Shown: positions 27,001 to 42,589 of the stretch, one piece after another
How positions within the stretch are numbered: the stretch's first letter is position 1
Layout of the letters: each line of letters begins with the position of its first letter
IMG/VR virus record: IMGVR_UViG_3300001687_000020
Strand: one strand, 5' to 3'
DNA from: a virus
Lineage: Duplodnaviria > Heunggongvirae > Uroviricota > Caudoviricetes
DNA length: 45,879 nucleotides
Notes under the pieces: generated by a model
Seen by the model: only the letters and a program-made list of their open reading frames with translations
The model's database searches: none
What the model was told of the DNA's origin: nothing
Position numbers and translations under genes: made by a program

Positions 27001-28157
27001 TTTCCCCCATAACCATCAGATGAGGCCCCACCAGAACCTAAGCATAAAGCGACTTGATTTGACCCATAAGATCTCCCACCAATATTAGTTCCTGCTCCCC
27101 CTCCATCTCCACCTGATCCTCCATGTCCTGCTCCACCCCCACCTTCACTTCCATCTCCGCCTTGACCTGCTCCGGGTCCATTTCCATCAGTATATGTATA
27201 TGCTCCAGCACCTGTAAACCCTTGATTATTTGCGGATAACATTGCTGTAGCAGGAATAGTTAAGTTTCTACAAAATATAACTACTCCTTTTCCATAAGTT
27301 GTGGAGGTATCACTTTGACAAGTTACCGTAACACCTGCGTTAATCGTAATATCTCTATATCTATAAACTCCAGAAGTTAAATTGGTATTTACGGCATACG
27401 TTTGGTCTAAGGCAGGATATGATATATCTTCATTATAAATTATAGAAAACTCAATTCCTTCATTTCCATCCCCAAAAGTTTCTATAATGGTGGGTTCTTC
27501 TAACTCAACTAATCCAGGGCGTGAAGAAAGATCAATTGAAGTTGCTGAATTATCTAAATCTAGTTGGTCTCTTGTGGTTACGGCAACCAAATCAAGAGCA
27601 TTAGTCATATCAACATATATCTGATCAATAGCAAGATTTATGTCAATTATTTCTTGCCAAATTGGACAATAAACTCTTCTATTAGTGGGAGTTCCTGGAT
27701 CGTAATCATATAACCCAGTAATATTCCCTGCGTTAACAGTTATTGCTTTTAAGAATACATATGCAGTTCCTGGATATAAAGCATGCTCAGCAGGAGTCAA
27801 TATTCGTATTCTTGCTGAGTGAGCTGGTTTAGTTTTTACATAAGTATAATCAATACATAGATAATATGTACCATTGGCTCCAAAAGTTGACCCAGAACGA
27901 TAATAATCTCTATCCCTTATATCAACGGTTTTACTAGCAGTACACTCAATAATTAAATCGTCTTTAAAAATTCTTCCTGGACTAATTAAAATATCAGTAT
28001 AGGAAGTTGCATCATTTAATGTAACTGCGTAATCATCTGGAGTCAAAATACAATTTAGACCCTCAGTCATCATTTCAGTCAGACGAGAGGCAATATTTGA
28101 GTTAAAAGCCTCAAAAGGATCTATTGTTCTGGTCTGTGAAAAATAAACGTTAGCCAT
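24006..28157 (-). CDS. Tail fibre / receptor-binding protein
   Basis: 1383 aa; two Gly-rich GGGAGHGG..YG..GSGG..GGGAI domains, central propeller-like repeats, C-terminal GYARLDNGLMIAWG (gp53-like) domain. Confidence 0.85.
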   Translation of the reverse strand: MANVYFSQTRTIDPFEAFNSNIASRLTEMMTEGLNCILTPDDYAVTLNDATSYTDILISPGRIFKDDLIIECTASKTVDIRDRDYYRSGSTFGANGTYYLCIDYTYVKTKPAHSARIRILTPAEHALYPGTAYVFLKAITVNAGNITGLYDYDPGTPTNRRVYCPIWQEIIDINLAIDQIYVDMTNALDLVAVTTRDQLDLDNSATSIDLSSRPGLVELEEPTIIETFGDGNEGIEFSIIYNEDISYPALDQTYAVNTNLTSGVYRYRDITINAGVTVTCQSDTSTTYGKGVVIFCRNLTIPATAMLSANNQGFTGAGAYTYTDGNGPGAGQGGDGSEGGGGAGHGGSGGDGGGAGTNIGGRSYGSNQVALCLGSGGASSDGYGGNGGGAIYIYASGTINVDGTLVASGQAGQTKGGTDEAGGGGSGGSIELVCSVLTGSGSIAADGGDGGDHGTGGQGGGGGGGGRLYIYTDSYGFTSVPTVSGGDGGTGVLGQNGEDGEDGDFKVEKVACYSSANVVISSTFYAIKTGIKARKLSDGTFDVIDVTWDDIKNCMESNIPATNNINTVIDDTSLDQQAFIAFSFDGGTPNACPSITEKIEGTWSETTPVATSNSYGNDVAVKDGYIHYVYTNLGSGELRYFYRKDGVNSDIEIIADFAGYPTGYVMSPRIRIDNAGFVHVVYAEVSYSAPTYTYSKIWYATNKRGLWENTTVQTITKTSSTHRAWYVDLAIDIDNIPHITYLDNAANVKYATHTINLETWSTTTVVAGGYPVWSSHCPSIAVDHYKKVHIIWLPTNGTIYHATNFTGAWVVNNLVWITDATYYIPTPGNDDIYFPIVCDKEGFCHTVFSIEDVGVSQRVVYCTNRSITANATFPTLLEWEKTYITSPVTGPPEHYALTKDAEDNIYFCYVDNFNYILKYYTNKTGSWVLENAYSPGTFLFELYRFGMDIGNLLSLGDTQSGLYKIENISYDLNIDDIPGTNGDEVTILNSYEDVPDYISETLPAGQIYICNSMIDCGFSGGSGLGANGVTVVYCNNYIINTGQTVDLTAAGWDYNDGWGLGHYGAGGGHGGAGGPSGVPGSLAGPTYGLNTCPIYPGSGGQRYTGSGTRGEGGGALIIIASNEVKINGTLNSNGYPGFSYCLGGGSGGSIYIKCRKFSGSGVINAYGGAGYSSANPYGSGGGGGGRIAIEYCLTSWTGTYNVNGGALGTGVTANGFAGAAGTWSYVITNGCSPTLASKKNVIIENDSTKIRLMNDRALTIPTGGSVRLRNYEGIWQEIGRNCGVSQLYVDTGYARLDNGLMIAWGEQGIPVDFAELWSYTLYYPVTFNKVLSISAWSRYCGGNMNSNNVHPADIYNDRCKFFTGEGWPAPAQSLRINYMIIGY

Positions 28158-28172
28158 TTATTTTTTTCCTCC

Positions 28173-29063
28173 TTAGGAACCAAGGACTTCTGTAAGTCGT
28201 TTTCCACCTATTTGTTTTATATCCTTAAATTTGGGCAATTCTCTACATTGAAAACCAGATGCGCCCTTATGTCCTCCTCCCCCATAGTTTAGAGCAATTT
28301 TAGATACATCTATTTCAGGGTTTAGAGAACTTAAACTTATTGTCCAAAGTTTTCCATCATGTTTTGTAGTTACTAAAATATCATATTTATCTAATTTAAA
28401 CTTACTTTTTAAAGCATCATAGAGGACTGAGCATCTTGAAGTCGAAGCAACTAAACATCTATATCCTTCCCATTGACATTCAAATCCCACTGAAGCAAAG
28501 TTAAACAATTCATTTTGTCTTCTATATCTTATAATAATTTTACCTTCATCCACTAAATACCCCACTTTAGGATCGTCTGGATATAAAAGTTTATGCCAAA
28601 GTAACATTGCTTTAGGATACTGAGGGTCTATATTGTATGAGGATAAAGCTGCTTCAACATATATGGTTTCAGGATAATCAAAGGTAAAAGTATCATAATC
28701 ACTAACTAATTTGACTATTTTAGGAATTTCAGAATTTTTACCATTAACATATTTCCAGGTCAACATAGCACCAGAGCAACTATCATCTCTAATCCCACCT
28801 GCTTGATTTCCTATGGGACTATCAAGATGAGAAATATGATGATCTATCCAATATATATTATTAGTGATCTCAAAAGCCTTTTCCCATTCTCCCTCTTTTT
28901 CAAAGGAAAAATCAACAATCCATAACTCTTCATTTTTCTTTAATTCACTAAAAGGAATTTCTAAATTATAGTTAATAGGAAACATTCGACATTTTGGAAA
29001 TTTATTTTTAACTATTGCTCCAGAACAAAAACCATCTAAATCGGTATGATATAAACATAGCAT
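28173..29063 (-). CDS. DHH/DHHA1 phosphoesterase
   Basis: YHTDLDG, IVDFS, WIDHH and GGGHKGASGF motifs. Confidence 0.92.
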   Translation of the reverse strand: MLCLYHTDLDGFCSGAIVKNKFPKCRMFPINYNLEIPFSELKKNEELWIVDFSFEKEGEWEKAFEITNNIYWIDHHISHLDSPIGNQAGGIRDDSCSGAMLTWKYVNGKNSEIPKIVKLVSDYDTFTFDYPETIYVEAALSSYNIDPQYPKAMLLWHKLLYPDDPKVGYLVDEGKIIIRYRRQNELFNFASVGFECQWEGYRCLVASTSRCSVLYDALKSKFKLDKYDILVTTKHDGKLWTISLSSLNPEIDVSKIALNYGGGGHKGASGFQCRELPKFKDIKQIGGKRLTEVLGS

Positions 29064-29103
29064 TCGTTATTCCTCCTTCTTTTTTTTTCGTTAGATTCGA
29101 TAA

Positions 29104-29334
29104 TTATTGTTTTTTCAGACTATTCATTAGTTCTTTAAATCGAGTATTCACTAAGGGTCTGGATTGTTCGTCGACTAATGTCACTTTTCCATCTAATATT
29201 AAAACCATAGTTTGGTATTTATCAGCTTCTCGAAGAAAGGAAATAAGTTGAATCTTGGCGGGATTGGATAATTCATTAGACTCATTTATTGCTTTAACAG
29301 CAAAAAGTTTTAGTATTTTAGTTTTATTATCCAT
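29104..29334 (-). CDS. Small stand-alone EATD-like domain protein
   Basis: Start ATG 29334 after GGGGGGA; LISFLREADKYQTMVLILDGKV aligns to KKFIMSEATDFEVIHLLFEGKL of 529-1617. Confidence 0.75.
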   Translation of the reverse strand: MDNKTKILKLFAVKAINESNELSNPAKIQLISFLREADKYQTMVLILDGKVTLVDEQSRPLVNTRFKELMNSLKKQ

Positions 29335-29374
29335 AGAATTCCCCCCACACAAAAAAGAATGTTAGTTGTAATTC

Positions 29375-29387
29375 TAAATATTTGTTC
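29375..29387 (-). promoter_or_regulatory. Putative late promoter GAACA-AATATT-TA heading the minus-strand block
   Basis: Plus strand taaatatttgttc in the divergent intergenic region. Confidence 0.75.
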
Positions 29388-29437
29388 AAATGTAAAATGG
29401 ATTTTCCACCAGATACAAATTACTTTTTATACCATTT

Positions 29438-29456
29438 AACTTATATATATAAATTA
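29438..29456 (+). promoter_or_regulatory. Putative early promoter motif AACTTATATATATAAATTA
   Basis: Near-identical motif at the other divergence point (44046-44062); both precede plus-strand blocks. Confidence 0.5.
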
Positions 29457-29546
29457 CTGGAATATTGTATAGTGGTTTGTCATACTTTTATTTAGATTTT
29501 TATTTTTATTTCTTTTTGGTACAAAAAAATAATATGGAGGAAAGAA

Positions 29547-29951
29547 ATGCCAAGATCATATAGGATTAGTCTTGAAAATGATAGAAACTTTAATGTAATA
29601 GGTATATTTCTTCCTTATGACGAAGTGGATGATATTTCTAGAACCAATGTATATTTGAAATTGATATCACTACATAAACCCTCTATAAATTTTCCTCGAT
29701 ATGAAACTTTTATGTCAGAAAAAGATAAATTTTTCTCATGTGCTTTAGGAATGAAAGGGAATCCGATTACAGGATCAGCTCAAATTATTTTTCTACTCGC
29801 AGAGCAAGGAATAGTTATAGGAGCTAGAGACATATCATTTACATTTTTTGATATGGAAAAAAGTAATTTAGAGGAGTATGTTACTGAGTTTCTTTATTCT
29901 ATAGGGGTTTCTGAAAGATTAATAAGGAGTGATTTTGGAGATAGATTATGA
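29547..29951 (+). CDS. YxxYL paralogue family member
   Basis: 134 aa; NVYLKLISLHK..NFPRYETF; ends FLYSIGV; RBS GGAGG. Confidence 0.75.
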   Translation: MPRSYRISLENDRNFNVIGIFLPYDEVDDISRTNVYLKLISLHKPSINFPRYETFMSEKDKFFSCALGMKGNPITGSAQIIFLLAEQGIVIGARDISFTFFDMEKSNLEEYVTEFLYSIGVSERLIRSDFGDRL

Positions 29952-30253
29952 TTAGATTAGCTAAAGAAGATCTTCTAAACCAAGGATTTTCTAAAATTTC
30001 TTATCCATATTTTCCCTATCATGAAGCATTTGAAGATCTTTACTGTAAACATATAGGATTAAGAAAAGATAATTGTTTCTTTAGTTTAAGTGGTCTTTGT
30101 TGGTATTTGGAAAATTTAAAAGGTGGTTGGGCAGAAACCACATATTACGAGATTTCTTTTCAACAAGATGGAGTATACATAAAAGCAAAACCAGTGGATA
30201 GAAAAGGATTTCATGATGAGAGTTTCAAAGTTTATTCCGGAGGAAATTCTTAG
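29948..30253 (+). CDS. YxxYL paralogue family member
   Basis: 101 aa; EDLYCKHIGLRK..FFSL; YYEISFQQDGVY shared with next ORF; ATGA overlap. Confidence 0.75.
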   Translation: MIRLAKEDLLNQGFSKISYPYFPYHEAFEDLYCKHIGLRKDNCFFSLSGLCWYLENLKGGWAETTYYEISFQQDGVYIKAKPVDRKGFHDESFKVYSGGNS

Positions 30254-30491
30254 GAGAGATTACAAAGTATTGGAAGAAAATGAGTTTATGAATAACATTG
30301 AACTCATTAAAGAAATATATATTGATTTTTTAGTTAATTTCAAAAACAATCTTTCTTATCAAAGTATGGAGAGATTATTATTGCATTATAATGGTTGGAG
30401 AATGGGTTGCATAGAAACTCGACATTATTCTATTATCTTTAGAGAAGATGGAATATTTCTGGAGGAGAAACAAGTTGACGGAAGATTTTAG
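30213..30491 (+). CDS. YxxYL paralogue family member
   Basis: 92 aa; KEIYIDFLVNFK..SYQSM; HYSIIFREDGIF. Confidence 0.75.
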   Translation: MMRVSKFIPEEILRRDYKVLEENEFMNNIELIKEIYIDFLVNFKNNLSYQSMERLLLHYNGWRMGCIETRHYSIIFREDGIFLEEKQVDGRF

Positions 30492-30810
30492 AAAATTTAT
30501 ACCTCATATCGATAGTTATACTAAATATGAATTTAAAGAATTTCTTAAGTTCGAAGATATTGTTAATGAAGTATATTTGACTCATTTAACTTTAATCAAA
30601 ACTAGGTTGGACTTTTCAAGTATTAAACAATATTTATATCTAGTTGGAAGTACTTTCACACTATGGAGACTAAGAACTCCTAATTATATGATAGAATTTT
30701 GTAATAAATATGTTTATATCAAAATGAATGAATTAGCTAGATTAAGTCTTATAACTCCGATTGAATATAAGTGTCTAGATTTAGAAGAGGGGTCTGAACT
30801 TTATGTTTGA
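30448..30810 (+). CDS. YxxYL paralogue family member
   Basis: EVYLTHLTLIK..DFSSI; start possibly TTG 30475 after GGAGG. Confidence 0.75.
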   Translation: MEYFWRRNKLTEDFRKFIPHIDSYTKYEFKEFLKFEDIVNEVYLTHLTLIKTRLDFSSIKQYLYLVGSTFTLWRLRTPNYMIEFCNKYVYIKMNELARLSLITPIEYKCLDLEEGSELYV

Positions 30811-31051
30811 TACTATAATCTTAGTTGACTATGATCAAATGCCTCAATATTATAAGATGTTTATATATACTTGTTATTTATCAGCAAAGAAATGTCGAGA
30901 GAGTTTTTTCAGTTTAAATCGCCTTTTTACTTCTTTTCGTGGAGATATAACATTTAGCAAGAGATGTGCATGTAGAATTTCTTTTAGAAGGAAATTCTTA
31001 TGTATTAGATATAAAATGAAACTTTACGAGGATTTAAATAATGGTTCTTAA
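30803..31051 (+). CDS. YxxYL paralogue family member
   Basis: 82 aa; YDQMPQYYKMFIYTCYLSAKK. Confidence 0.75.
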   Translation: MFDTIILVDYDQMPQYYKMFIYTCYLSAKKCRESFFSLNRLFTSFRGDITFSKRCACRISFRRKFLCIRYKMKLYEDLNNGS

Positions 31052-31319
31052 GATAACGAATAGTGATATAAATGAGAGTATAGAAATAGGGCTTTACATG
31101 GTAATTTTATCTAGTGGAAAAACTTCAATGAATTTTTGTACATTAAAAGATAATTTATCATTTAGACAGGGTTCTCATAAATCAATGTATGTTTTTGAAC
31201 TTTCTTGCGCAGGAACAGCTATTTGTTTTGGTGAAGGGAGTATAGAAATTCAATTTCCATATAATATCCATATTTCAGATATGTGTTCATTCTTAAAAAG
31301 GATTTTTTCATGTCAATAG
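31041..31319 (+). CDS. YxxYL paralogue family member (divergent)
   Basis: 92 aa; GLYMVILSSGK..NFCTL. Confidence 0.65.
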   Translation: MVLKITNSDINESIEIGLYMVILSSGKTSMNFCTLKDNLSFRQGSHKSMYVFELSCAGTAICFGEGSIEIQFPYNIHISDMCSFLKRIFSCQ

Positions 31320-31332
31320 AGGAAAATAAATT

Positions 31333-31821
31333 ATGGACCATGTATACTATGAGAGGTTTTTTTATGATGACTTAACAAAATCTCAGAAGGAAATATTCTA
31401 TTCTTTATATTTAATATACAACAAAGGGAAATTGGTATACCATAGTTTAGACACTGTTTATAAAGGTGGGGGAGTTTTTCACACTACTCCTCCTACTTTA
31501 CTATTCTCGAAAGATAACTTTATTATTCGATATGATCTATATCGAGAATTGAAAGATTTATTTCGGTGGGTCTCTGGTTATCCTAGAAGAAGACTTTATT
31601 ATTCATGTTGTAATCAAGAGCAAAAAGATATTATGTATTCAATATATCTTATATCAGAGAAACATTATCTGGAATTTTCAAATATTTATAAACTTTTCAA
31701 AACTAATTCAACTGTTTTAGAAATATTAGATTTCTATTTTGTTTTTAACAGAGACTATGTTTCTTTAAGTCCTTTTTCATACGAATGGGTTAGGGAAATG
31801 ATAGATTATAAGGATACGTAA
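31333..31821 (+). CDS. YxxYL paralogue, two tandem domains
   Basis: 162 aa; QKEIFYSLYLIYNK and QKDIMYSIYLISEK. Confidence 0.8.
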   Translation: MDHVYYERFFYDDLTKSQKEIFYSLYLIYNKGKLVYHSLDTVYKGGGVFHTTPPTLLFSKDNFIIRYDLYRELKDLFRWVSGYPRRRLYYSCCNQEQKDIMYSIYLISEKHYLEFSNIYKLFKTNSTVLEILDFYFVFNRDYVSLSPFSYEWVREMIDYKDT

Positions 31822-31822
31822 A

Positions 31823-32116
31823 ATGGAAGGAGATTTAGTACAAATTTATTATTCAAAAATGAGTTCTGAGCAAATAAGACTTATACATACCTTTTGGTTG
31901 GCTCATTTTAAACATAATGCAAGATTTTTAGTAAGTAATACTGCTGTTTATAATCCCTGGAAAATGCCTCTTATAGATGATATTAGATTTCACCATGAGT
32001 TTGTATTGATCGGTTCCTATACTTGGGAATATATCAAGTTATGTTTTATTAGCATGAAATTAGACTATATGAATTTAGAGTTTAGAGATTTGGATAAATA
32101 TTATATAAGGAGTTAA
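31823..32116 (+). CDS. YxxYL paralogue family member
   Basis: 97 aa; YSKMSSEQIRLIHTFWLAHFK. Confidence 0.75.
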   Translation: MEGDLVQIYYSKMSSEQIRLIHTFWLAHFKHNARFLVSNTAVYNPWKMPLIDDIRFHHEFVLIGSYTWEYIKLCFISMKLDYMNLEFRDLDKYYIRS

Positions 32117-32119
32117 TAA

Positions 32120-32383
32120 ATGGTGGAAGATTATATAGCATTAAAATATGAGCATATGAATGAAAGACAGAAAACTCTTTTATATATATGTTTAATAGCC
32201 TTTACTAAGCAAAGGAATTTTCCAGAGTTTTTAAGAACAGTTGATCGTCCAGACAAATGTTATTTTAATAAATTCATGTTCTATCGCTATATGTATGTCA
32301 CAGTAACTAAAGAACTATGGAATTATATAAGACATTTATACTGGGCAATGGATGACTTAACACATATATATACCAAACAGTAG
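32120..32383 (+). CDS. YxxYL paralogue family member
   Basis: 87 aa; YEHMNERQKTLLYICLIAFTK. Confidence 0.75.
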   Translation: MVEDYIALKYEHMNERQKTLLYICLIAFTKQRNFPEFLRTVDRPDKCYFNKFMFYRYMYVTVTKELWNYIRHLYWAMDDLTHIYTKQ

Positions 32384-32397
32384 AGAAAAAACAATAT

Positions 32398-32589
32398 ATG
32401 AAAAACTATTACTATGAAATATATCATTTAAATGTACCACTGACTGAAAAATATATTATTTACTCTATGTATTTAGGTATTAAAAAATCAGTGGATGATT
32501 TCTTAACTTTTTCTGAGTTTTTAACTGTAACAATAGGAATTAGAATTTTCAATAATTGTTTTTACTATATTGATTATAAAGGAAGTTAA
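32398..32589 (+). CDS. YxxYL paralogue family member
   Basis: 63 aa; EKYIIYSMYLGIKK..DFLTFSEF. Confidence 0.7.
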   Translation: MKNYYYEIYHLNVPLTEKYIIYSMYLGIKKSVDDFLTFSEFLTVTIGIRIFNNCFYYIDYKGS

Positions 32590-32591
32590 AT

Positions 32592-32930
32592 ATGCTAATT
32601 AGGACATCTATAGTTACTAAGTTTAATAGTAACCTTCTAAATATTATTTATACTATACTCATGTCTGATTTAAAAGGAATTCCAACCTTTCCTAGTATTA
32701 TAAATTCTTTTTCTATATATGAAAGGCTATCAGAACCAAACCAATTATTTTCTCTTACATTTCATACTCTCAGCACTAAAAAATTAGCTATGCATTTTGA
32801 TATTCACACGTACTCAGATTTGAAGGGATCATATAAAAAAGAGGATTTTTGTAAGCAGCTTTTAACTTTTGGTTTTTCTAAAGGCAATATAAATGAGTGG
32901 GATAAAGATATATCATATTTTTGGAGATAG
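32592..32930 (+). CDS. YxxYL paralogue family member
   Basis: 112 aa; LNIIYTILMSDLK; QLLTFGF near the C-terminus. Confidence 0.7.
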   Translation: MLIRTSIVTKFNSNLLNIIYTILMSDLKGIPTFPSIINSFSIYERLSEPNQLFSLTFHTLSTKKLAMHFDIHTYSDLKGSYKKEDFCKQLLTFGFSKGNINEWDKDISYFWR

Positions 32931-33156
32931 AATGTTTATAAGAAGGTACTATAATCAAATGAGTAAAGAAGAAAAACATAGTTTATATTGTTATTATATA
33001 TCTAATGCCAAAAATACTGTTAGAATTCTTGGTTATGTAAAGTTCTATGAAAGTCATCCTGGATATATAAGAGACGGAATACTATATCTCAAAGGTGTTA
33101 GTCCTGGATCAATTTTAAATTCTAAATGGAGACATATAGTAAATGGAAATGAATGA
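32893..33156 (+). CDS. YxxYL paralogue family member
   Basis: YNQMSKEEKHSLYCYYISNAK. Confidence 0.75.
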   Translation: MSGIKIYHIFGDRMFIRRYYNQMSKEEKHSLYCYYISNAKNTVRILGYVKFYESHPGYIRDGILYLKGVSPGSILNSKWRHIVNGNE

Positions 33157-33352
33157 AGTAATGATGGAAGAAAGTTATATTACATATTTATCACTTATTA
33201 AATCAACTAATTTTCTGAGTTTAGAAACTTTTACATCAACTACAACACCTGCTTACGTTTCAATACTTTTAAACCCGGGTCTTAATAAAGATAGTTATAG
33301 ATATTTATTAAATACAATTAAGAATAGTATTCGAGGGAACAATGTTTTATAA
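33143..33352 (+). CDS. YxxYL paralogue family member
   Basis: 69 aa; SYITYLSLIKSTNFLSLETF. Confidence 0.7.
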   Translation: MEMNEVMMEESYITYLSLIKSTNFLSLETFTSTTTPAYVSILLNPGLNKDSYRYLLNTIKNSIRGNNVL

Positions 33353-33578
33353 GCAAATTGTTTGGGAAAATATTGGTAAAAGATTTAAATTGCTTGTATA
33401 TAGATGTTATTTATCTCAAGCTAAATATCATGCTTATTTCAGTGGCTATGATCACTTTTTTGCGTCTGCTGTTATTTTTGGATTTTTATTCGATTATAAA
33501 AATTTTAGTTTCACTGTAGGCTCAAAAGGGATTGGTATATATCATAGAGAGTTGCTAGAACAGATTCATAGATATTAA
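33342..33578 (+). CDS. YxxYL paralogue family member
   Basis: 78 aa; FKLLVYRCYLSQAK..FSGYDHF. Confidence 0.75.
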   Translation: MFYKQIVWENIGKRFKLLVYRCYLSQAKYHAYFSGYDHFFASAVIFGFLFDYKNFSFTVGSKGIGIYHRELLEQIHRY

Positions 33579-33588
33579 AGGGAAAGTA

Positions 33589-33864
33589 ATGACTGAATAT
33601 AACGTTAAATTTATAAGATACGGAGAAATACCTGAGATACTTGAATTATACTTTTTCAAACTATTTATATCTAAGGCTAAAATATTTCCTAAATTCCCTA
33701 GTAAAGAAAGATTTTTAGCAGAAATGGAAGGGCGTGGATGTGTTTTATCTTTAGATGAGTATTATTTTCATTTTAGGCATAATGGAATAGCCGTATTAGA
33801 AAATTACGATATTGATGACGAATACGTAGACTTTGTGTTTACTTCTATTATGGATGAAGATTAA
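33589..33864 (+). CDS. YxxYL paralogue family member
   Basis: 91 aa; LYFFKLFISKAK..FPSKERF. Confidence 0.75.
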   Translation: MTEYNVKFIRYGEIPEILELYFFKLFISKAKIFPKFPSKERFLAEMEGRGCVLSLDEYYFHFRHNGIAVLENYDIDDEYVDFVFTSIMDED

Positions 33865-33875
33865 GGAGATTTTGA

Positions 33876-34241
33876 ATGATGCCTGCAATATCAGCAAAGT
33901 TTAGTATTGATAGCGGAGAAATGATGGAAATAGTTTATAGACTATATTTATCTTATATCAAAAATGAAGGAAATTTTGGTTCTATTAATATAGTCCTCTC
34001 GTTAGAATATAACCATTTTATGATGAAAACACCTTTTCCTCTTAGTATAGCTACCACAGAACTAGGAGGAAAAAGAGTTTTGTATATCGCTTTTAGTAAT
34101 CTTGATTTTATTTATTCCCGGTCTCAGATGGAAGGTTTCTTTTATCAACAATTAGAATACTTAGGAATTCCTGGGTATGTAATTCTCGAAACTATGGATA
34201 AAGAAAGGAAAATTATATACAATGTTAGAACTCACTATTGA
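33876..34241 (+). CDS. YxxYL paralogue family member
   Basis: 121 aa; MEIVYRLYLSYIK; QLEYLGIP. Confidence 0.75.
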   Translation: MMPAISAKFSIDSGEMMEIVYRLYLSYIKNEGNFGSINIVLSLEYNHFMMKTPFPLSIATTELGGKRVLYIAFSNLDFIYSRSQMEGFFYQQLEYLGIPGYVILETMDKERKIIYNVRTHY

Positions 34242-34545
34242 TCCAAGAGAAATAGATGAAAAAATATATAATATTTTGTATAGCCTACATTTATATGGCC
34301 ATAAAGATAGTGCCTTTTTTTCATCTAAGCAAAAACTTTTTAGTTTTGGTGGTCTGACAAGATGCATAGCTGTAATAGAAACCAACCATTTTATGGCGTA
34401 CATAGAAAAATTAGGTCATACTAGAAAAATATCACTAAAAATGTATTCACTTTCAGGTATAGATCCAACATTTAAAGACAATTCTTTATTTCTAAAAGAA
34501 TTAGGATTCCCTAACTATATTGTAGATCAGGCTGAGGAGATCTAA
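34222..34545 (+). CDS. YxxYL paralogue family member
   Basis: 107 aa; NILYSLHLYGHK; FLKELGFP. Confidence 0.75.
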   Translation: MLELTIDPREIDEKIYNILYSLHLYGHKDSAFFSSKQKLFSFGGLTRCIAVIETNHFMAYIEKLGHTRKISLKMYSLSGIDPTFKDNSLFLKELGFPNYIVDQAEEI

Positions 34546-34548
34546 ATA

Positions 34549-34923
34549 ATGTTATATAGTGAAATTAATATGATATATGTTGATGAAACTATTAAAAATC
34601 TTATCTATTCTTTATATTTATGTTGCAGGAAAAATTTAGAACATTATGCAAGAATAGAAAAAATATTTATGCCTTCAAAAAATACGCAAACTATTTGTAT
34701 ACTAAATATTCCTACGTCTGAAGTTAGAGATTTTGGAAGTCTCTATATAGTGAGATCATCCCAAGCGAGTTTTATACATTTCTACTATTTTTGTAGAGAA
34801 TCTATTGGATTTCCAACTGAAGAGGAAGTTAAACTATTTAAAAAAACATTGATTAATCTTGGTTTTGAGGAATGTTTAAAAAATGGAACTTTAATACATG
34901 GGAGACCACAAAATGGTCTATAA
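34549..34923 (+). CDS. YxxYL paralogue family member
   Basis: 124 aa; KNLIYSLYLCCRK; TLINLGF. Confidence 0.75.
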   Translation: MLYSEINMIYVDETIKNLIYSLYLCCRKNLEHYARIEKIFMPSKNTQTICILNIPTSEVRDFGSLYIVRSSQASFIHFYYFCRESIGFPTEEEVKLFKKTLINLGFEECLKNGTLIHGRPQNGL

Positions 34924-35284
34924 AAGTTTAGACAATTCGATAAGTGGAATACAATTTAAATCTAACGAAGTCGATATGATAAAAGTATATAATTTATTCC
35001 TATCAGCGTCTAAGAATACTTTGGGTTTTCCTGGCTTATCTAATATAGACTCAAAGCAATTTGCAGTAGTTCTTCTTCCGCCTACTGTTTTATTATTAGG
35101 AAAACAAATTGCTTTACTTATGAAGGAAGATATGATTTTTATAGGAATAGTAGTAGTTTTACCACTAGAAACAAATCTTCATGAGTTAGTAAGGAAAGAA
35201 TTAGAAAATTTGAATGTTTTAGATATATTAGGACTTTCAACATTGGAGGATTGTAACATTGTTATTCAACAAAATTCCCACTAG
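34898..35284 (+). CDS. YxxYL paralogue family member
   Basis: IKVYNLFLSASK; ELENLNV. Confidence 0.75.
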   Translation: MGDHKMVYKSLDNSISGIQFKSNEVDMIKVYNLFLSASKNTLGFPGLSNIDSKQFAVVLLPPTVLLLGKQIALLMKEDMIFIGIVVVLPLETNLHELVRKELENLNVLDILGLSTLEDCNIVIQQNSH

Positions 35285-35660
35285 ATTAAATTATGGTTTT
35301 TATTATGGTACTATATACGGAATAAGGATTCCTTATGAAGTAGAGAATAAACAACTTGTTTATTCGTTTTATCTAGCTTATAGGAAAACAATTAACTACT
35401 ACAGTTCTTGGTTTTATGTAATGCGTGGACAATTAAGATTGACTGTTTATTGTCTTCCTTTTTTTATTGAAAATAGGTCGCTACTTATGGCTTTTACCTC
35501 AGACAGCATGGTATTAGGGTTACAAACCATAGATTTTCCAAAAAGGAAGAAACCTTTAAGAAGAATAGACGAAGCTTTATATAATGCTCTTAAAGAAGTC
35601 GGATTTCCTGATTCTTTAACTAGAGGAGAATCGAATGATGTTAGTGGAGATAGATGGTGA
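35259..35660 (+). CDS. YxxYL paralogue family member
   Basis: KQLVYSFYLAYRK; ALKEVGFP. Confidence 0.75.
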   Translation: MLFNKIPTRLNYGFYYGTIYGIRIPYEVENKQLVYSFYLAYRKTINYYSSWFYVMRGQLRLTVYCLPFFIENRSLLMAFTSDSMVLGLQTIDFPKRKKPLRRIDEALYNALKEVGFPDSLTRGESNDVSGDRW

Positions 35661-36075
35661 AAAAATAGAAAACGGTAATTATTATAATTTAGAAGAATTT
35701 GAAAGAGTGGTTAAAAGTATAGATTCAACTTTTTATGGTTTACTTCTATATAATTATCAGATATTGGAAGATAGTAGACTTCTTCCGGTTCTTTATTCTT
35801 TATATCTTAGTTCTGAGAAAAAAAGAGATTTTCAGTCTACATATGTACTGTTTAATGCTAGAAATAGCCCAAGACCCACTTTTCCCAATGTTATAGTTCC
35901 TCTAAGTTTTGGAACTAAATTAGGAAGATTATATTTATTGGTTTTTGATGATTTTTCAATGATAGGATTAGTGATTTCCATTAGTTTTCGGAAATTTTCA
36001 GATAAAAATTTTGTGAGAGAGTTACACCAAATATGTACTAATAAACTATGTATCCCCGAGGAATATTTATGTTAA
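35635..36075 (+). CDS. YxxYL paralogue family member
   Basis: 146 aa; PVLYSLYLSSEK; KLCIPEE. Confidence 0.75.
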   Translation: MMLVEIDGEKIENGNYYNLEEFERVVKSIDSTFYGLLLYNYQILEDSRLLPVLYSLYLSSEKKRDFQSTYVLFNARNSPRPTFPNVIVPLSFGTKLGRLYLLVFDDFSMIGLVISISFRKFSDKNFVRELHQICTNKLCIPEEYLC

Positions 36076-36398
36076 GAGAAACATTTGAAATACTTTCTAT
36101 AAGAAAACCCATCTTAAAAGCTATAATAAGTCTAGTTCATTTGAGAAAATATAAACTATTTTGGCATACTGAAGTTGATAAGGATCACATAGTTTATACT
36201 CTACTGTATACATGGTATCTTGCATATTGGTCAAAATCTAGAGATTATTATAGCCTAAAAGAACTATATTTAAAAGAAAATGCTTTCAGAGTATCGTCTG
36301 TTGAAATTGATACTTTTGAAGTTCATATATACCGAGGATGGATATTATTTAGAGAAAAGAAAGCGAGGAAGATTTTTAAATGGTTATGTTTTGTGTAA
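36048..36398 (+). CDS. YxxYL paralogue family member
   Basis: TLLYTWYLAYWSK..YYSLKEL. Confidence 0.75.
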   Translation: MYPRGIFMLRETFEILSIRKPILKAIISLVHLRKYKLFWHTEVDKDHIVYTLLYTWYLAYWSKSRDYYSLKELYLKENAFRVSSVEIDTFEVHIYRGWILFREKKARKIFKWLCFV

Positions 36399-36721
36399 AA
36401 ATATCTCATTGGAAAACAAGAAAACCCCTTATTCTCGAACTGATGTACAAATTTTATATAGCAAAGAATTTTATGATAGTTTGGGAAAAAAGTAATTATA
36501 AGTCTATGAAGGAGTTTAGAGAGAAAAATATATATAGGGAATTTAATTATGGAAATTTAATTCTTCTTTTCCATAGTCAAACATTATACGTGGGAAAAGA
36601 TGTTTTATCTATCAAGGACCATCAGGTTCTTATATCTTATAAAAGGAGTATAATAAGGGATGCCAAAAAACTAGGAATAAAAGGATTCACTACGGATGAC
36701 TTAAAGCTTCGAGTATTCTAA
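36380..36721 (+). CDS. YxxYL paralogue family member
   Basis: 113 aa; LELMYKFYIAK; AKKLGIKG. Confidence 0.75.
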   Translation: MVMFCVKISHWKTRKPLILELMYKFYIAKNFMIVWEKSNYKSMKEFREKNIYREFNYGNLILLFHSQTLYVGKDVLSIKDHQVLISYKRSIIRDAKKLGIKGFTTDDLKLRVF

Positions 36722-36745
36722 TATTTAATATTGGAGGTTTTAGAA

Positions 36746-37441
36746 ATGACAATAGCAGAGAATACATCACTTTTTGTAGATTTCGTTAATAGTCATTTAA
36801 ACCAAGTCTACAAAGCAAGGGACATAGTCCCAGTTTTAGGATGTGGATTGAGAATTACGCAAGACTTCTTGAAAACTTTGACTGAAAAATATCCAGACAG
36901 GGTTAAAAGGGAGAAAGATAAAAATACTTATCTTTATACGTTTAAGAAAAAGTTGACTGAAAAAGACATTCTAAGTTTCAAACAAGATGCCCCAGGCAAA
37001 TCTTCTAAACGTGATACTCCCAAAAAACCTTCTTCACCAAAAGCAAATCCAAAATCCAAATCGGTTACGGAAAGGAATGATTTTTCCAAAAATATTGGTA
37101 TTTTGATTAAAAGTATGGACATTATAGAAGGTTCTCTCAATGCTCTAATCAAAGGAGAAGGTATAACAAAGAACATCAAGATTGATATCAATCTGGGTGG
37201 ATTAAAGGGTGAGAAAGTTAGTTTTTCTAGACCTACTCAGGATGAAATTAACAAACCGATCACGCCAGAAGATATAGCTGATATTACTTCTGCATTAAAA
37301 GACTTTTTCGAGCCTATTCCTAACATTAATTTAACATCTGAAAGATTAACAGAAATAGCCGAAGAAATTCTTTTTATCGTTTTATCGGTTGATAATGCTA
37401 AATGTTTGATTAAATTATTCCAATCATTTTTCCCTAAATAA
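36746..37441 (+). CDS. Putative winged-helix DNA-binding protein
   Basis: Likely start ATG 36746 after GGAGG (track 36731); YKARDIVPVLGCGLRITQDFLK..YLY resembles a wHTH; basic Lys/Pro/Ser linker. Confidence 0.5.
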   Translation: MTIAENTSLFVDFVNSHLNQVYKARDIVPVLGCGLRITQDFLKTLTEKYPDRVKREKDKNTYLYTFKKKLTEKDILSFKQDAPGKSSKRDTPKKPSSPKANPKSKSVTERNDFSKNIGILIKSMDIIEGSLNALIKGEGITKNIKIDINLGGLKGEKVSFSRPTQDEINKPITPEDIADITSALKDFFEPIPNINLTSERLTEIAEEILFIVLSVDNAKCLIKLFQSFFPK

Positions 37442-37457
37442 TCTGAGGAGGAAGGAG

Positions 37458-37925
37458 ATGGATTTTCCAAGAATTTATCTTTATGGTTTACGATTAAAAT
37501 GGACAAAATTGATAATACGAAGGAAAGATATTCTTCAAATTATCTATACTTACTATTTATCTAAGTTCAAAGATATTATAACATTTGGAGATTTTAATTA
37601 CTTCATTACTTATGAAAATCCATCTCCTCACCATCTCAAACCATCAGAATTGGGTCCTATACGTATATTTGGTTTAAATCTACATATAGCGATAGGACCT
37701 AATTCTGAGAACAATTTTAGACCTAGATTATTATTTATAGCTAGAGAAGTTTTTAGTTTCCGAAAAATAGATATGTTTACACCTCGGGATTTACAGGAGA
37801 GAGAAAAAACGTCAGAGATGCTCAAAGTTTTCTATATTGACATAGATCCATTGAAACTGGATAGGGTAGAACATTATAGTGAATTGGGAGAGAAAAAATT
37901 CATTTATAAAGGACTTTCAAAATGA
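37458..37925 (+). CDS. YxxYL paralogue family member
   Basis: 155 aa; LQIIYTYYLSKFK; YLYGLRLKW and GPIRIFGLNL shared with next ORF. Confidence 0.8.
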   Translation: MDFPRIYLYGLRLKWTKLIIRRKDILQIIYTYYLSKFKDIITFGDFNYFITYENPSPHHLKPSELGPIRIFGLNLHIAIGPNSENNFRPRLLFIAREVFSFRKIDMFTPRDLQEREKTSEMLKVFYIDIDPLKLDRVEHYSELGEKKFIYKGLSK

Positions 37926-38377
37926 AAGCTTGCTATTATGGTTTGAAATTAGATTGGTTAAAAATACTTAGCTACAAACCAATTATTCCTACTATACTAT
38001 ATATCCATTATTTGATTGAAAGAAAAAGATTTCTTTATCCAAAATCATATCGAGATTTTATCTTTATTGATTTTGGCGATAATACATTTAACCCTCCTTC
38101 ATTTGGTATTTTCTCTCCATTCGGTCCGATACAAAGAATAGGTCTCCATTTATACTGGGAACCCAGGTTTGTGAAGAATCGTTGGAACGATGTGAGGATG
38201 GAAGTAGACTTTTATGTGGCTAAACAGACATATTTAACCCACACACCTGCTTCATTATATGATAAGTTATTAAGAGAAGAAACGTGCTTATATATGTCTA
38301 ATCTAGGTATTTTTGTTGAACCTCATGACTTAGGTTTTGCTGAAAAAATAGAGTTTTTACCTTCGGTGGAGATATGA
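37922..38377 (+). CDS. YxxYL paralogue family member
   Basis: 151 aa; TILYIHYLIERK; YYGLKLDW and GPIQRIGLHL. Confidence 0.8.
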   Translation: MKACYYGLKLDWLKILSYKPIIPTILYIHYLIERKRFLYPKSYRDFIFIDFGDNTFNPPSFGIFSPFGPIQRIGLHLYWEPRFVKNRWNDVRMEVDFYVAKQTYLTHTPASLYDKLLREETCLYMSNLGIFVEPHDLGFAEKIEFLPSVEI

Positions 38378-38378
38378 C

Positions 38379-38783
38379 ATGAGTCAAAGGATACATCACA
38401 TTCTTGGTGTTAATTTTAGAACAGAAGAATTGAAAACCAATAAAGAATTTCTACATTGTATGTATTTACTTTCTTTAATATCTGAGTTTGTTTATGATAA
38501 TAGATGTAGTTATCACTTTTACTCATTTAAAAAATTTGTAGACTCAGACTATTTCACTCATATAGCTATGTATAGATTGGGTTATCTTACTAATCTGGAG
38601 TGTATAACATATCATAATGCTGGAACTATATTTAAACTTCATTTAGGTCTTAGATTTCCACAAGATATGGAATTATTTGAAACTAAATATAACTATATGC
38701 AAAGGATTATATTAAATTTAGACAAAATTGGGATTCATACTAATGTAAGTCATTTATGTTTAAGATCTAAAATTATCGACTAA
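38379..38783 (+). CDS. YxxYL paralogue family member
   Basis: 134 aa; LHCMYLLSLI; NLDKIGIH. Confidence 0.75.
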   Translation: MSQRIHHILGVNFRTEELKTNKEFLHCMYLLSLISEFVYDNRCSYHFYSFKKFVDSDYFTHIAMYRLGYLTNLECITYHNAGTIFKLHLGLRFPQDMELFETKYNYMQRIILNLDKIGIHTNVSHLCLRSKIID

Positions 38784-38795
38784 GGGGGTGGAAAA

Positions 38796-39185
38796 ATTCT
38801 CAATTATAATAGTTTTTGTATAATAGGTTTTACAATTGATAAAGATTCTTTTATCAAAAAATTTCCTGATATTTGTAAATTAGTTTATAAATTGTATTTA
38901 TCTTATAATAAGGATGGGTTGTTAGTTAAAGGATTCGAGGGATTTTTAACTTCAGAACTTTTTTTCACGTATATCTCTCTATTTCTACTAAAAAATGGTT
39001 TATATGGGACTCAGGAGACAAGTCCAAATTCCTGTTATTTTTATTTAGGAAAAAGTATTTATACTATGTATGAAACTGAAACTTTACATGATTTCAAACT
39101 AAGAGTATACAATAAGTTAAGGAAGACAGGATTTGAAATAACCTTTAAAGAAATGTCTGTACATACAGGCTCAGGAGACAGGTAA
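38796..39185 (+). CDS. YxxYL paralogue with uncertain start
   Basis: Frame open from 38784; family motif KLVYKLYLSYNK begins upstream of the track start (38892); candidate ATT start at 38796. Confidence 0.65.
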   Translation: MLNYNSFCIIGFTIDKDSFIKKFPDICKLVYKLYLSYNKDGLLVKGFEGFLTSELFFTYISLFLLKNGLYGTQETSPNSCYFYLGKSIYTMYETETLHDFKLRVYNKLRKTGFEITFKEMSVHTGSGDR

Positions 39186-39186
39186 A

Positions 39187-39666
39187 ATGACAGAAAAAGA
39201 TAACAAAAATAATCCGGGGGACATCAAAGAAAGTATTAAAAAGTTATTAGATGCTGTTATTCCAACTAATGAATTGATAGACAAAATCCAGAATGTACTA
39301 AATGGTATCCCCCAAATACTTGATGATTCAGAAATCAGAAAAATAGTAGTGACAACTTTATTAATGGGAGATGCTTTTCAATTTGAGGAATTTAAAGACC
39401 TGCTAAAGGTTTATGGAATTGAACCTCCCACAGATGACTTGGGAAAACCTCACACTGAAATTCTAAAAGATATTAGTCTTAAAATTATAAATAGCTTTTA
39501 CAAGATGGACAATGATAAGCTTCCCCATTTTTTTAAACTGTTATTAAAGTGTTTTGGAAAAGGATCATATTCAGTTGATGATTTTAAATGTATGTCTCAT
39601 CCTATAAAACTAGAATCGGACGTAGATATGGATTTTTTAAAAGACCTTAAAGGACCAATGCATTAA
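39187..39666 (+). CDS. Hypothetical protein
   Basis: 159-aa ORF, RBS GGAG/AGGT. Confidence 0.7.
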   Translation: MTEKDNKNNPGDIKESIKKLLDAVIPTNELIDKIQNVLNGIPQILDDSEIRKIVVTTLLMGDAFQFEEFKDLLKVYGIEPPTDDLGKPHTEILKDISLKIINSFYKMDNDKLPHFFKLLLKCFGKGSYSVDDFKCMSHPIKLESDVDMDFLKDLKGPMH

Positions 39667-39682
39667 TAATTAAAAGGGGGTT

Positions 39683-40153
39683 TTGAGAATGTTTAGTTTT
39701 TTAGTTATCTCTTTTTTAGTATGTGTTGTGGTAAGTTTTTTAGGAAGAGTTGTCAAGAATGATTTAATGATACTTATCGGTATAGTAGGAATGATTTTGA
39801 TAGTAATTTTTGGTTTTTTATATTTCCCTCACTTTTTTAGGACAGAGTATAACATTCACGTTACTAGGTTAGAAGGTTCTAAATTTTCAAGAATGGTTTT
39901 AGGAACCGAGATTGAGTCAGGAAAAGGAATGTCATTTAAAAATAGGGATAGTGCACTTGAATGGAAATGGAACTCTGCTGATATTCAAGCAGAGTTAGAG
40001 GAAGGAAAAGACTTTACTATAAAAGTTTATGGTATTCGTTTACCTTTTTGGTCAGTAAACAAAAATATAATATCTGTCGAGCCATATGTTAGAAAACCTG
40101 ATCCGGAGAAAATAAGTTTTTTACCTCTATTCTTTAATCTAAACTTTTCTTAA
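39683..40153 (+). CDS. Membrane-anchored phage protein (DUF1523-like)
   Basis: Two TM helices then FKNRDSALEWKWNSADIQAELEEGKDFTIKVYGIRLPFWS..NII motif. Confidence 0.7.
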   Translation: MRMFSFLVISFLVCVVVSFLGRVVKNDLMILIGIVGMILIVIFGFLYFPHFFRTEYNIHVTRLEGSKFSRMVLGTEIESGKGMSFKNRDSALEWKWNSADIQAELEEGKDFTIKVYGIRLPFWSVNKNIISVEPYVRKPDPEKISFLPLFFNLNFS

Positions 40154-40166
40154 CTGGAGAAACAAT

Positions 40167-40604
40167 ATGACTTGGATTTTTAAAGTTTTTGATGTCTATA
40201 TAATTCTTTTTTCTATGATTATCCTTCTAGTTATGTATTTATTCTTTCCCTTGGGTATAGCCCTACTGATAATATTTATAGCTTTGGGTTGTGTGTTGTG
40301 GGGTTATTGGACTAATTCTAAAGAATTGAGAATTAGTGGGAAAGTGATGGACAAGAAGTCATATTATTCTGAAAGTTATAGACATTTTTGTGGTCTATTT
40401 TATAGAGTTTCAATTTTCTCACCTGTTTATGGGAAAGTGATAATTCAAGAAATTTCTCCTGGCTATCCAGAAAGACTTTTTGGATCTACTAGTAAAATTT
40501 TAGATTCATTAGAAATAGGTCTCAATTATGATTTAGTTTTTAAACACTGGGAGACAATGTTTGGTATTTATAATTTGTTGGTTGAAGTCAAAAAAATGCC
40601 ATAG
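40167..40604 (+). CDS. Two-TM protein with OB-fold-like soluble domain
   Basis: 145 aa; ISGKVMDKKSY...DSLEIGLNYDLVF pattern parallels the previous ORF. Confidence 0.65.
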   Translation: MTWIFKVFDVYIILFSMIILLVMYLFFPLGIALLIIFIALGCVLWGYWTNSKELRISGKVMDKKSYYSESYRHFCGLFYRVSIFSPVYGKVIIQEISPGYPERLFGSTSKILDSLEIGLNYDLVFKHWETMFGIYNLLVEVKKMP

Positions 40605-40615
40605 GGGAGGGGTTA

Positions 40616-41047: not shown

Positions 41048-41058
41048 GGAACTATATA

Positions 41059-41265
41059 ATGAACAAATCTATACCTATAATCCATGGGATTTCTATATTT
41101 GGAATGGTTATAGCACTTCTTGGATTGAATTGGTTAAATCTTTCTACTGTGAAGCAACTTAATGAAAGGCAAAAGCAACTTAAGAAATTTTTCAATTCGT
41201 TTCTTGCTTTAGTTGGAATTGTAAGTATTATAGTATTTCTGATAACTTCTTTTATTAGGAGATAG
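41059..41265 (+). CDS. Small two-TM protein
   Basis: 68 aa; same TM-loop-TM layout as 41272-41475. Confidence 0.7.
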   Translation: MNKSIPIIHGISIFGMVIALLGLNWLNLSTVKQLNERQKQLKKFFNSFLALVGIVSIIVFLITSFIRR

Positions 41266-41271
41266 ATCAAA

Positions 41272-41475: not shown

Positions 41476-41479
41476 AAGC

Positions 41480-41920: not shown

Positions 41921-41931
41921 GAGGTATTTAA

Positions 41932-42580: not shown

Positions 42581-42589
42581 AATACAGAA

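Follow-up and report, generated by a model that had tools for sequence, protein, structure and literature searches.

A tandem array of 27 small, highly diverged paralogues in a large uncultivated myovirus, probably a reduced offshoot of a multi-copy family that is widespread in large phages

Large eukaryotic DNA viruses carry multigene families, such as MGF110, MGF360, and MGF505 of African swine fever virus (ASFV), in which many diverged paralogues are arranged in blocks and are suspected of a role in host interaction. Poxvirus gene accordions, exemplified by the amplification of K3L, provide an adaptive route by tandem duplication; their copies are recent, nearly identical, and variable in number. 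Among phages, the jumbo phages G and 121Q contain tandem arrays with over 30 genes described as "very similar" (Hua et al. 2017, PMC5646251). Here, we analyze a comparable array in IMG/VR record IMGVR_UViG_3300001687_000020 (Caudoviricetes), a stretch of 45,879 nucleotides, hereafter the window, that is part of a large uncultivated myovirus. The array, at positions 29547-39185, is made up of small genes that share a Y-x-x-Y-L helix motif. As in phages G and 121Q, large-phage genome space is filled by tandem duplication of one small uncharacterised gene; unlike in those phages, the similarity among the copies is barely detectable, and the family is a different one. Tandem small-gene arrays in jumbo phages are therefore already known, whereas the family, its signature, its structural model, and the link of the array to it are new as far as shown by the libraries and literature searched.

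The array consists of 28 consecutive open reading frames (ORFs) on the + strand, numbered m01 to m28 in order. The family accounts for 27 of these genes and for 28 domains, one gene being a tandem double; the sole interruption is an unrelated 236-aa gene (m24, 36731-37441). Open frames of at least 60 codons cover 99.5% of the + strand, as compared to a mean of 7% and a maximum of 20% in 300 shuffles. Shine-Dalgarno (SD)-like 4-mers lie upstream of 23 of the 28 starts (background 17%), GC content by codon position is 0.35, 0.29, and 0.21 at positions 1, 2, and 3 across the array, and the gaps between genes range from -44 to +16 nt. The open-frame coverage, SD-like 4-mers, codon-position GC, and tight gaps indicate that the 28 ORFs are real genes. 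The original prediction, made from the letters alone, had counted nearly every ORF of this region as a member of one family. That count holds for the 27 ORFs with the motif; it fails for m24 and is a by-eye assignment for m06 (31041-31319).

Alignment of the copies with MAFFT gives the consensus Y-x-x-Y-L-x3-K-x4-F-x-S; a short strand comes before it, and two or three strands and a helix come after it. Members were compared with approximately 2,855 decoys, consisting of 100 shuffles per member (2,700) and 155 real ORFs located elsewhere in the window. With full-length leave-one-out hidden Markov models (HMMs), re-aligned each time, 15 of the 27 left-out members rank first and three rank second. 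Motif-only models place 10 members first and 7 more at ranks 2-4. Smith-Waterman z-scores against shuffles average 1.33 over all pairs and rise to 12.9 for m02-m03, 10.5 for m25-m26, 10.0 for m17-m18, 8.4 for m10-m20, 8.0 for m05-m14, and 7.1 for m11-m25. Members m23, m27, and m28, which are weak within the array, are the ones that match the external family described below. Leave-one-out profiles, pairwise z-scores, and independent profiles together support 26 of the 27 genes, and the diverged Y-x-x-Y-L paralogue array that had been proposed is real. Its additional sub-block features were recovered in the alignments: m05-m15 carry Y-x-x-M-x3-K, 11 members end in L-x2-L-G-F/I, and m20, m21, m25, and m26 start with Y-G-L-x-L. 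Conserved positions are mainly aromatic or aliphatic, and overall charge varies widely, with isoelectric points (pI) of 4.7-9.9, in agreement with the conserved scaffold and variable surface that had been anticipated.

Relatives of the array were found by an exhaustive profile search, in which an alignment of 22 long-type copies was compared with 1.84 billion representatives at a cutoff of E 1e-3. This search returned 146 representatives at 50% identity, 125 of which come from outside this phage (for example P0161, P0142, and P0155). A word-indexed protein search with all 27 members returned this phage's own proteins only. Pfam, PHROGs, and NCBIfam gave nothing above noise with the array members, with the additional copies in the same phage (groups B and C, below), or with the external members; a PDB sequence profile search and a megablast of the array against 50,697 deposited phages found no match. 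A tblastn search of P0161 and P0155 against the same deposited phages was likewise negative, with the reservation that its low-complexity filter may mask the serine run. No Pfam, PHROG, or NCBIfam model covers the external family, and PHROG 7397 matches only its N-terminus, faintly. The family had at first gone unrecognized, which is borne out insofar as no curated library covers it, but relatives do exist and constitute a widespread undescribed family of large phages.

The external family has a clear signature. A head of the form M-K-x-K/R-x-D/G-F-V-T/S-N-S-S-S-x-S-F is present in 116 of the 125 external proteins, and a C-terminal I-E-E-x-W-x-D-G is found in about half. The canonical protein is acidic, has 100-150 residues, and contains an I-G-x-S-P-x2-M-K-D-D-E-T loop (hereafter the D-D-E-T loop) and an L-x3-G motif. 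Across 124 external sequences, N10, S11, and S12 are conserved at 94-95%, G89 at 96%, T100 at 97%, and G116 at 91%.

The link between this N-S-S-S head family and the array was examined from both sides. A second IMG/VR record of the same phage (IMGVR_UViG_3300027917_000053, 56 kb, hereafter G002) extends leftwards from window position 3649. Scanning it with the array profile reveals five copies in a row at 27154-29121 (group B) and four at 43029-44798 (group C), all on one shared strand, which brings the number outside the window to at least nine. Of the four copies in group C, three start with M-K-x-K-L/V-D/S-F-I/V-T-N-S-S. A profile made from groups B and C only places m28 (2.4e-9), m23 (1.8e-7), m26, m25, and m21 above all decoys. 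An HMM made only from external proteins (124 sequences, none from this phage) recognizes m28 at E 2.2e-17, m23 at 2.6e-7, and m27 at 1.8e-6. It also matches all nine copies of groups B and C, eight of which beat every one of approximately 3,100 decoys; the copy at G002 27937-28290 has an E of 0.02 and ties with the best shuffle. In the reverse direction, an HMM trained on m02-m22 only (the core HMM) finds P0166 (1.7e-4) and P0154 (7.8e-3), as well as m25 and m01, above all decoys, and both P0166 and P0154 combine the N-S-S-S head with an array-style helix. Aligned as profiles with hhalign, the whole array and the external family match with a probability of 68% and an E of 4.9e-5 over 85 columns in register. 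With hmmalign, the strand-1 glycine, the Y-x-x-Y-L helix, I-G, and L-G fall in register with the external family, whose consensus at the first helix is L-Y-E-K-Y-x3-K...S-F-E-E-F. Because these segments align in register, the hallmark motif of the array corresponds to the first helix of the external family and the turn into its next helix. These comparisons make it very probable that the array is a derived and reduced branch of an undescribed family that is widespread, and occurs in multiple copies, among large phages.

The multi-copy habit extends to other phages. An IMG/VR scan with the external alignment gave 80 loci, many of them from contigs of 200-548 kb. At least two copies lie within 10 kb on either side in 61 of the 80, up to 11 are found in a row, and five whole records contain 4-11 matches each. 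Matches in the arrays of other phages include 84 that are full, 135 that are partial, and 67 that cover the head only. In those arrays, the head (the N-terminal 18-20 residues) is constant and the bodies drift, which is the opposite of what is seen in the 27-gene array. The copy number here (27 plus at least nine) is approximately three times the largest found elsewhere (11), and this is the only large headless set. Another phage (L026) contains a tandem run of genes for 82, 108, 151, 140, and 139 aa; headed and headless copies are mixed here, the two short ones being those without a head and with the array-style helix. A third phage (L024) has a single copy downstream of the genes for RNA polymerase (RNAP) beta-prime, RNAP beta, and FolE2, the same place as that of group C. 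Four loci (L044, at 5780-10773 of a 548-kb IMG/VR contig, L065, L078, and L108) are runs of 8-11 consecutive genes whose products start with M-K-I/V-R-x-G-F-V/I-S-N-S-S-S-S-S-F and then diverge fully. An 18-residue head is common to otherwise unrelated-looking bodies in these runs, and some of the bodies contain Cys-rich, zinc-ribbon-like stretches.

Comparison with the external family shows what the array copies kept and what they lost. Like the external family, the array occurs as tandem multiple copies. The first helix and the turn to the next helix are kept in nearly all copies; the hairpin is kept too. The strand-1 glycine is kept in the long copies that start with Y-G-L/I, the I-G motif is seen in long copies, and a helix ending in L-x2-L-G-F/I, the counterpart of L-x3-G-F/I, is kept in 11 long copies and absent from the short ones. 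In contrast, the N-S-S-S head and the W-x-D-G tail of the external family are lost in 27 of 27 copies; remnants of the head survive in m01 (N-D-R-N-F) and m28 (N-Y-N-S-F). The D-D-E-T loop is lost except for degraded versions in m23, m27, and m28, and it is degraded in group B as well. Short copies (63-101 aa) also lack the last helix-strand unit. The three canonical-like copies, m23, m27, and m28, are all among the last five genes, although a 5'-to-3' gradient of canonical likeness is not significant (Spearman 0.32, p 0.11).

The array arose by tandem duplication of one highly diverged paralogue family, a conclusion supported by the finding that adjacent pairs are the most similar. The mean z-score is 2.77 for adjacent genes versus 1.34 for non-adjacent genes (p = 0.0004-0.0006), as had been proposed from inspection, and no other gene spacing stands out in pairwise likeness. 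A block duplication with a period of 9-10 genes, suggested by best-partner distances, received no support when tested. Identity of the copies to the first sequence of the alignment is 10-25%, with a mean of 14%. Repeats at the DNA level are limited to patches of 18-39 nt that are 70-89% alike, the longest of which encode the motif, consistent with the earlier remark that no obvious DNA repeats remain. Other samples that cover m01-m08 and m17-m19 are colinear and 99.8-100% identical, and no near relative carrying the whole block was found. Because identity is only 10-25%, DNA similarity is gone, and the arrangement is identical in the covered samples, the array is best read as an old, stable, fixed multigene family rather than a recent amplification with changing copy number. 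The "gene accordion" of the original prediction is thus not upheld: as in the poxvirus case, a viral gene has been duplicated in tandem, but the array here is ancient, lacks DNA repeats, and is the same in the parts of it that other samples cover. The only strain variant found contains two single-nucleotide polymorphisms (SNPs) in 1,198 bp, both of them non-synonymous, which is far too few for a selection test. In one sample (L001, JGI 3300028815), the single departure from the shared arrangement, 193 bp corresponding to window 29754-29946 are missing inside m01 and replaced by a 46-nt inverted piece, leaving an 83-aa m01 (P0005); this change is either a strain deletion or an assembly artifact.

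The fold was modeled for the external member P0161 with AlphaFold2, using 122 sequences, and the model has a predicted local distance difference test score (pLDDT) of 88.7 and a predicted template modeling score of 0.79. The chain starts with a long strand; a helix, a pair of short helices, a hairpin, another helix, and the last strand follow, so the canonical domain is modeled as a beta-alpha-(alpha-alpha)-beta-beta-alpha-beta, four-stranded alpha/beta sandwich. In a low-confidence model of m17 (pLDDT 69.5), a strand, two helices, three strands, and a helix follow one another in an order that agrees with that of P0161. For two array copies, the ESM Atlas models (pLDDT 0.35 and 0.42) were too poor for use. 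Fold searches with the low-confidence m17 model gave nothing but weak Roadblock-like rows, which were discarded. Fold searches with P0161 found no significant relative: the best Foldseek match in the PDB has an E of 0.1, and the best match of an exhaustive aligner has a Z of 4.5. In the AlphaFold DB, BFVD, and ESM Atlas, the matches are uncharacterised viral proteins followed by weak palm, cyclase, or reverse-transcriptase rows. Ferredoxin-like and palm-type domains (adenylyl cyclase Rv1625c, polymerase palms, Cas2, and SPOR) have the same beta-alpha-beta-beta-alpha-beta order as the canonical model, a resemblance of topology only, and share no catalytic motifs with it. For palm, class III cyclase, and GGDEF-like domains in particular, TM-scores are 0.40-0.58, and the alignment contains no matching acidic motif.

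Homodimer prediction for P0161 gave a score of 0.50, as compared to 0.00 for the best control. In a benchmark, this score was attained by 20 of 30 solved homodimers and by 1 of 23 solved monomers. Contacts agree between runs to at least 71%, with a partner pLDDT of at least 76. The predicted interface comprises residues 15, 17, 92-102, and 126-130, that is, the most conserved loop (M-K-D-D-E-T, 92-102) and strands 1 and 4. The canonical protein is thus predicted to form a symmetric homodimer through the D-D-E-T loop and these two strands.

These data allow us to propose a role for the array. Translation of its genes would proceed from a single long operon on the + strand, translationally coupled and oriented against the virion genes. 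Every product may retain the hydrophobic core and lack both the ancestral conserved site and the predicted dimer interface. Since the core is kept and the conserved site and interface are lost, the products would most likely be separate small binding modules, acting inside the cell with differing surfaces, each with a different host or phage partner as its target while the cell is being taken over. A tandem expansion that is old and lineage-specific and yields separate binding modules is the best explanation overall, and we regard it as reasonably probable. On its own, a binder or host-interaction function of the array copies is a tentative proposal, less probable than not. Several points weigh against this explanation. 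Profile-profile scores for subsets of the array without the three canonical-like genes are weak (E 0.098 with m02-m22, and 0.0018 with a set of eight long members); therefore, the link to the external family is transitive, through a chain, for most copies, 24 of the 27 being connected to it indirectly. Statistics do not support m06 (rank 12 and E 0.3 in leave-one-out; best z 3.4), and its membership is unproven. The fold is without an informative structural relative, so function is a matter of pure inference, and the dimer score expresses model confidence for one external protein rather than for an array copy. Finally, the loss of head, loop, and tail could equally reflect relaxed constraint.

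Other explanations account for parts of the same evidence. That the genes are not one family at all, the motif being a chance or compositional feature of small AT-rich ORFs, might be argued from the mean identity of 14% and from several members that fall below decoys in leave-one-out; however, 15 of 27 members come first among the same-composition decoys, external profiles match array members independently and the reverse is also true, and adjacent genes are more alike. The leave-one-out results and the two-way external profile matches largely refute this explanation, which is extremely improbable. Decay of duplicates that have little or no function and are retained by chance or by operon structure would fit the extreme divergence, the loss of all the polar elements that the parent family strongly conserves, the m01 cut to 83 aa in one sample, and the non-synonymous nature of both SNPs. 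It is hard to reconcile with 28 intact frames over 99.5% of 9.6 kb at 28% GC (7% in shuffles), with SD sites before 23 of 28 starts, and with the retained hydrophobic core positions, and we consider it very unlikely. The unrelated bodies encoded at the T4 internal-protein locus share a short N-terminal capsid-targeting leader. The array copies could similarly be virion-packaged or ejected internal proteins, as at that polymorphic locus, given that other huge-phage arrays keep only the leader-like N-terminal 18-20 residues (67 head-only, 135 partial, and 84 full matches) and that the array adjoins the virion gene block. However, the head is lost in 27 of 27 copies, residues 13-24, which start inside the head, form the central strand of the canonical model, meaning that the head is not a detachable leader, and the array lies on the strand opposite to the virion genes. 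A packaged role is accordingly judged quite improbable.

Two further alternatives assign a biochemical activity to the family. The Y-x-x-Y-L helix, the F-x-S-x3-F helix, and the hairpin could form a winged-helix-like unit, making the copies small nucleic-acid-binding regulators. The m17 model has helix, helix, and hairpin in that order, about half of the copies are basic (pI 8.3-9.9), and m24, which looks winged-helix-like by eye, lies inside the array. Yet the remaining half is acidic or neutral, no helix-turn-helix family is matched in Pfam or NCBIfam, and the well-supported canonical model is a four-stranded alpha/beta sandwich with no winged helix, the array-copy model being of low confidence; such regulators are about as improbable as packaged proteins. 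Alternatively, the family may bind or process a small ligand, such as a nucleotide signal, at a site composed of the head, the D-D-E-T loop, and the W-x-D-G tail, with the array supplying variants or regulators of that activity. N10, S11, S12, T100, G20, G89, and G116 are near-invariant in the 124 external sequences and lie at or near the predicted two-fold interface, and the weak fold rows are palm-, cyclase-, or reverse-transcriptase-like. These fold matches are below noise, however, and all three elements are missing from the array copies, so ligand binding there cannot be the copies' own mode of action; the explanation as a whole is unlikely. A bolder version of our proposal joins the two sets. 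The N-S-S-S head family might be a new class of dimeric huge-phage effector, perhaps binding a ligand or host protein at the two-fold site formed by head, loop, and tail, and the array a library of 27 genes for headless, monomeric derivatives, with a different host factor or defense system as the new target of each. We regard this version as rather unlikely, albeit less so than ligand binding with the array as its regulators.

If the bolder version is true, the multigene families of large eukaryotic DNA viruses would have a phage counterpart in this array. The array resembles the ASFV families in its blocks of diverged paralogues with a conserved core and a variable surface; it differs in having no sequence relation to them, in infecting different hosts, and in being known from sequence only. 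The array can be used as a natural experiment in which the head, the tail, and the last helix-strand unit have been lost from intact genes. An apparent orphan array is now a tractable family with a signature, a confident model, a predicted dimer interface, and at least 125 clusters in phages of up to 548 kb, usually in multiple copies. Large blocks of small unannotated paralogues such as this one make up a major share of the "dark matter" that separates huge from small phages.

The individual genes, all on the + strand, fall into long and short types. The first gene, m01 (29547-29951, 134 aa), is of the long type, with the head remnant in the context E-N-D-R-N-F-N-V-I-G and an L-x2-I-G ending; it ranks first in leave-one-out and has a core HMM E of 1.5e-3. 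It is followed by the short-type genes m02 (29948-30253, 101 aa), which has a blastp match at 2e-7, and m03 (30213-30491, 92 aa; leave-one-out rank 1). Next are m04 (30448-30810), which encodes 120 aa, or 111 aa from the TTG start of the gene caller, and ranks second, and the short-type m05 (30803-31051, 82 aa; rank 1). In m06 (92 aa), the segment L-Y-M-V-I-L-S-S-G-K...F-C-T-L can be matched to the motif by eye only. The tandem two-domain gene is m07 (31333-31821, 162 aa), which has motifs at approximately residues 20-45 and 100-125, two motif matches, and leave-one-out rank 1 (E 2.6e-7). Smaller genes follow: m08 (31823-32116, 97 aa; rank 4, motif-only rank 2), m09 (32120-32383, 87 aa; rank 1), and m10 (32398-32589), which at 63 aa is the smallest member (strand, two helices, hairpin) and has a z-score of 6.0 with m18 in addition to its closer match with m20. 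The long-type m11 (32592-32930, 112 aa) has an L-L-T-F-G-F ending. It precedes m12 (32893-33156, 87 aa; rank 1), m13 (33143-33352, 69 aa; rank 2, motif-only rank 1), m14 (33342-33578, 78 aa; rank 1, E 4e-6), and m15 (33589-33864, 91 aa; rank 2).

Long-type genes predominate thereafter. Rank 1 in leave-one-out is held by m16 (33876-34241, 121 aa, L-E-Y-L-G-I-P; E 2e-6), by the modeled m17 (34222-34545, 107 aa, L-K-E-L-G-F-P; E 2.4e-7), and by m18 (34549-34923, 124 aa), m19 (34898-35284, 128 aa), m20 (35259-35660, 133 aa), and m21 (35635-36075, 146 aa), all of the long type, as well as by m22 (36048-36398, 116 aa). Member m20, with a Y-G-I start and an L-K-E-V-G-F-P ending, aligns in register with the external family along most of its length. 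The near-canonical m23 (36380-36721, 113 aa) retains Y-V-G...I-K-D-H-Q-V-L...K-K-L-G-I. The non-member m24 lacks the motif and has no Pfam, PHROG, or NCBIfam match; by eye, it has a winged-helix-like N-terminus, then a low-complexity linker rich in K, S, and P, and finally a C-terminal domain. Beyond it are two long-type genes, m25 (37458-37925, 155 aa), which has a Y-G-L-R-L start, rank 1, and a core HMM E of 9.5e-4, and m26 (37922-38377, 151 aa), for which the B and C profile gives an E of 5.8e-4. The near-canonical m27 (38379-38783, 134 aa) shares a reading frame with m28 (38796-39185), from which it is separated by a single TAA. With 61.5 bits against the external-only HMM, m28 is the least-diverged copy. 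Its start is most likely ATT 38796, giving 129 aa: a strong SD site, GGGGGTGG, lies at 38784-38791, 4 nt before this ATT, and the product gains K-L-V-Y-K-L-Y-L-S-Y-N-K-D and the strand carrying the family glycine. The start in the ORF list, TTG 38892, is the only canonical one; it yields 97 aa and cuts the conserved helix and motif. Stop-codon read-through at the m27/m28 junction is a less likely alternative.

The array lies at a switch in genome organization. Positions 1-29.3 kb of the window form a virion gene block on the - strand with a GC content of 33-39%. It includes a tail sheath gene (2963-4906, - strand) with 24% identity to the sheath of jumbo phage phiR1-37. The coding strand switches at 29353-29546, and small + strand genes with a GC content of 26-30% continue to approximately 42.6 kb. 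This intergenic region, from which the - strand late/structural block and the array diverge, contains TATATATATA at 29442-29451 and the SD sequence GGAGG preceding the first gene. Scans for sigma-70 promoters and terminators gave no excess over shuffles, and a candidate promoter in the region is putative only. TATATATA occurs 11 times versus 4.9 expected, an enrichment that is not array-specific, and an Rfam scan of 28000-45879 gave no match.

On the left, two giant - strand proteins adjoin the array, at 17947-22335 (1462 aa) and 24006-28157 (1383 aa). They have no Pfam match and one marginal PHROG match, and a pattern scan of IMG/VR found no relative of either. A neighboring DHH gene, used as an anchor, has many homologues in T4-like phages, none of them beside such an array. 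On the right, the first membrane-protein gene downstream (39683-40153) matches PHROG 301 ("secreted protein") at E 9.8e-14 and is followed by similar small membrane proteins on the + strand to approximately 42.6 kb. Judged by its tail sheath, the closest long relative (G001, 143 kb, 49% identity) contains no family member that could be found and no counterpart of window 13.6-45.9 kb, an absence that is weakly informative because this record is 46% complete. Sheaths of closer relatives, with 55-57% identity, are encoded at loci L006-L008.

Several JGI metagenomes contain the same phage at 99.8-100% identity. In G002, positions 49141-54904 and 47965-48822 (L023) encode a multisubunit RNAP, with a beta subunit of 1009 aa and a beta-prime subunit of 925 aa, and then the GTP cyclohydrolase FolE2; the order beta-prime, beta, FolE2 is common to the metagenomic phage L024. 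A 113-aa ORF at G002 36795-37133 has two Y-x-x-Y/H-L-x3-K...F helix motifs and no recognizable remaining fold (core HMM E 3.9e-5); its overlap with the last part of a 244-aa ORF makes it uncertain as a gene. Approximately 25-29 kb to the left of the window start, G002 contains a long repeat array at approximately 29,200-32,400, with a spacing of approximately 36 nt and the boxes GGGTTTCT and GGTAAACT. In or next to this repeat array are two short ORFs with the motif (G002 30545-30890 and 32724-33026), which were not counted as members.

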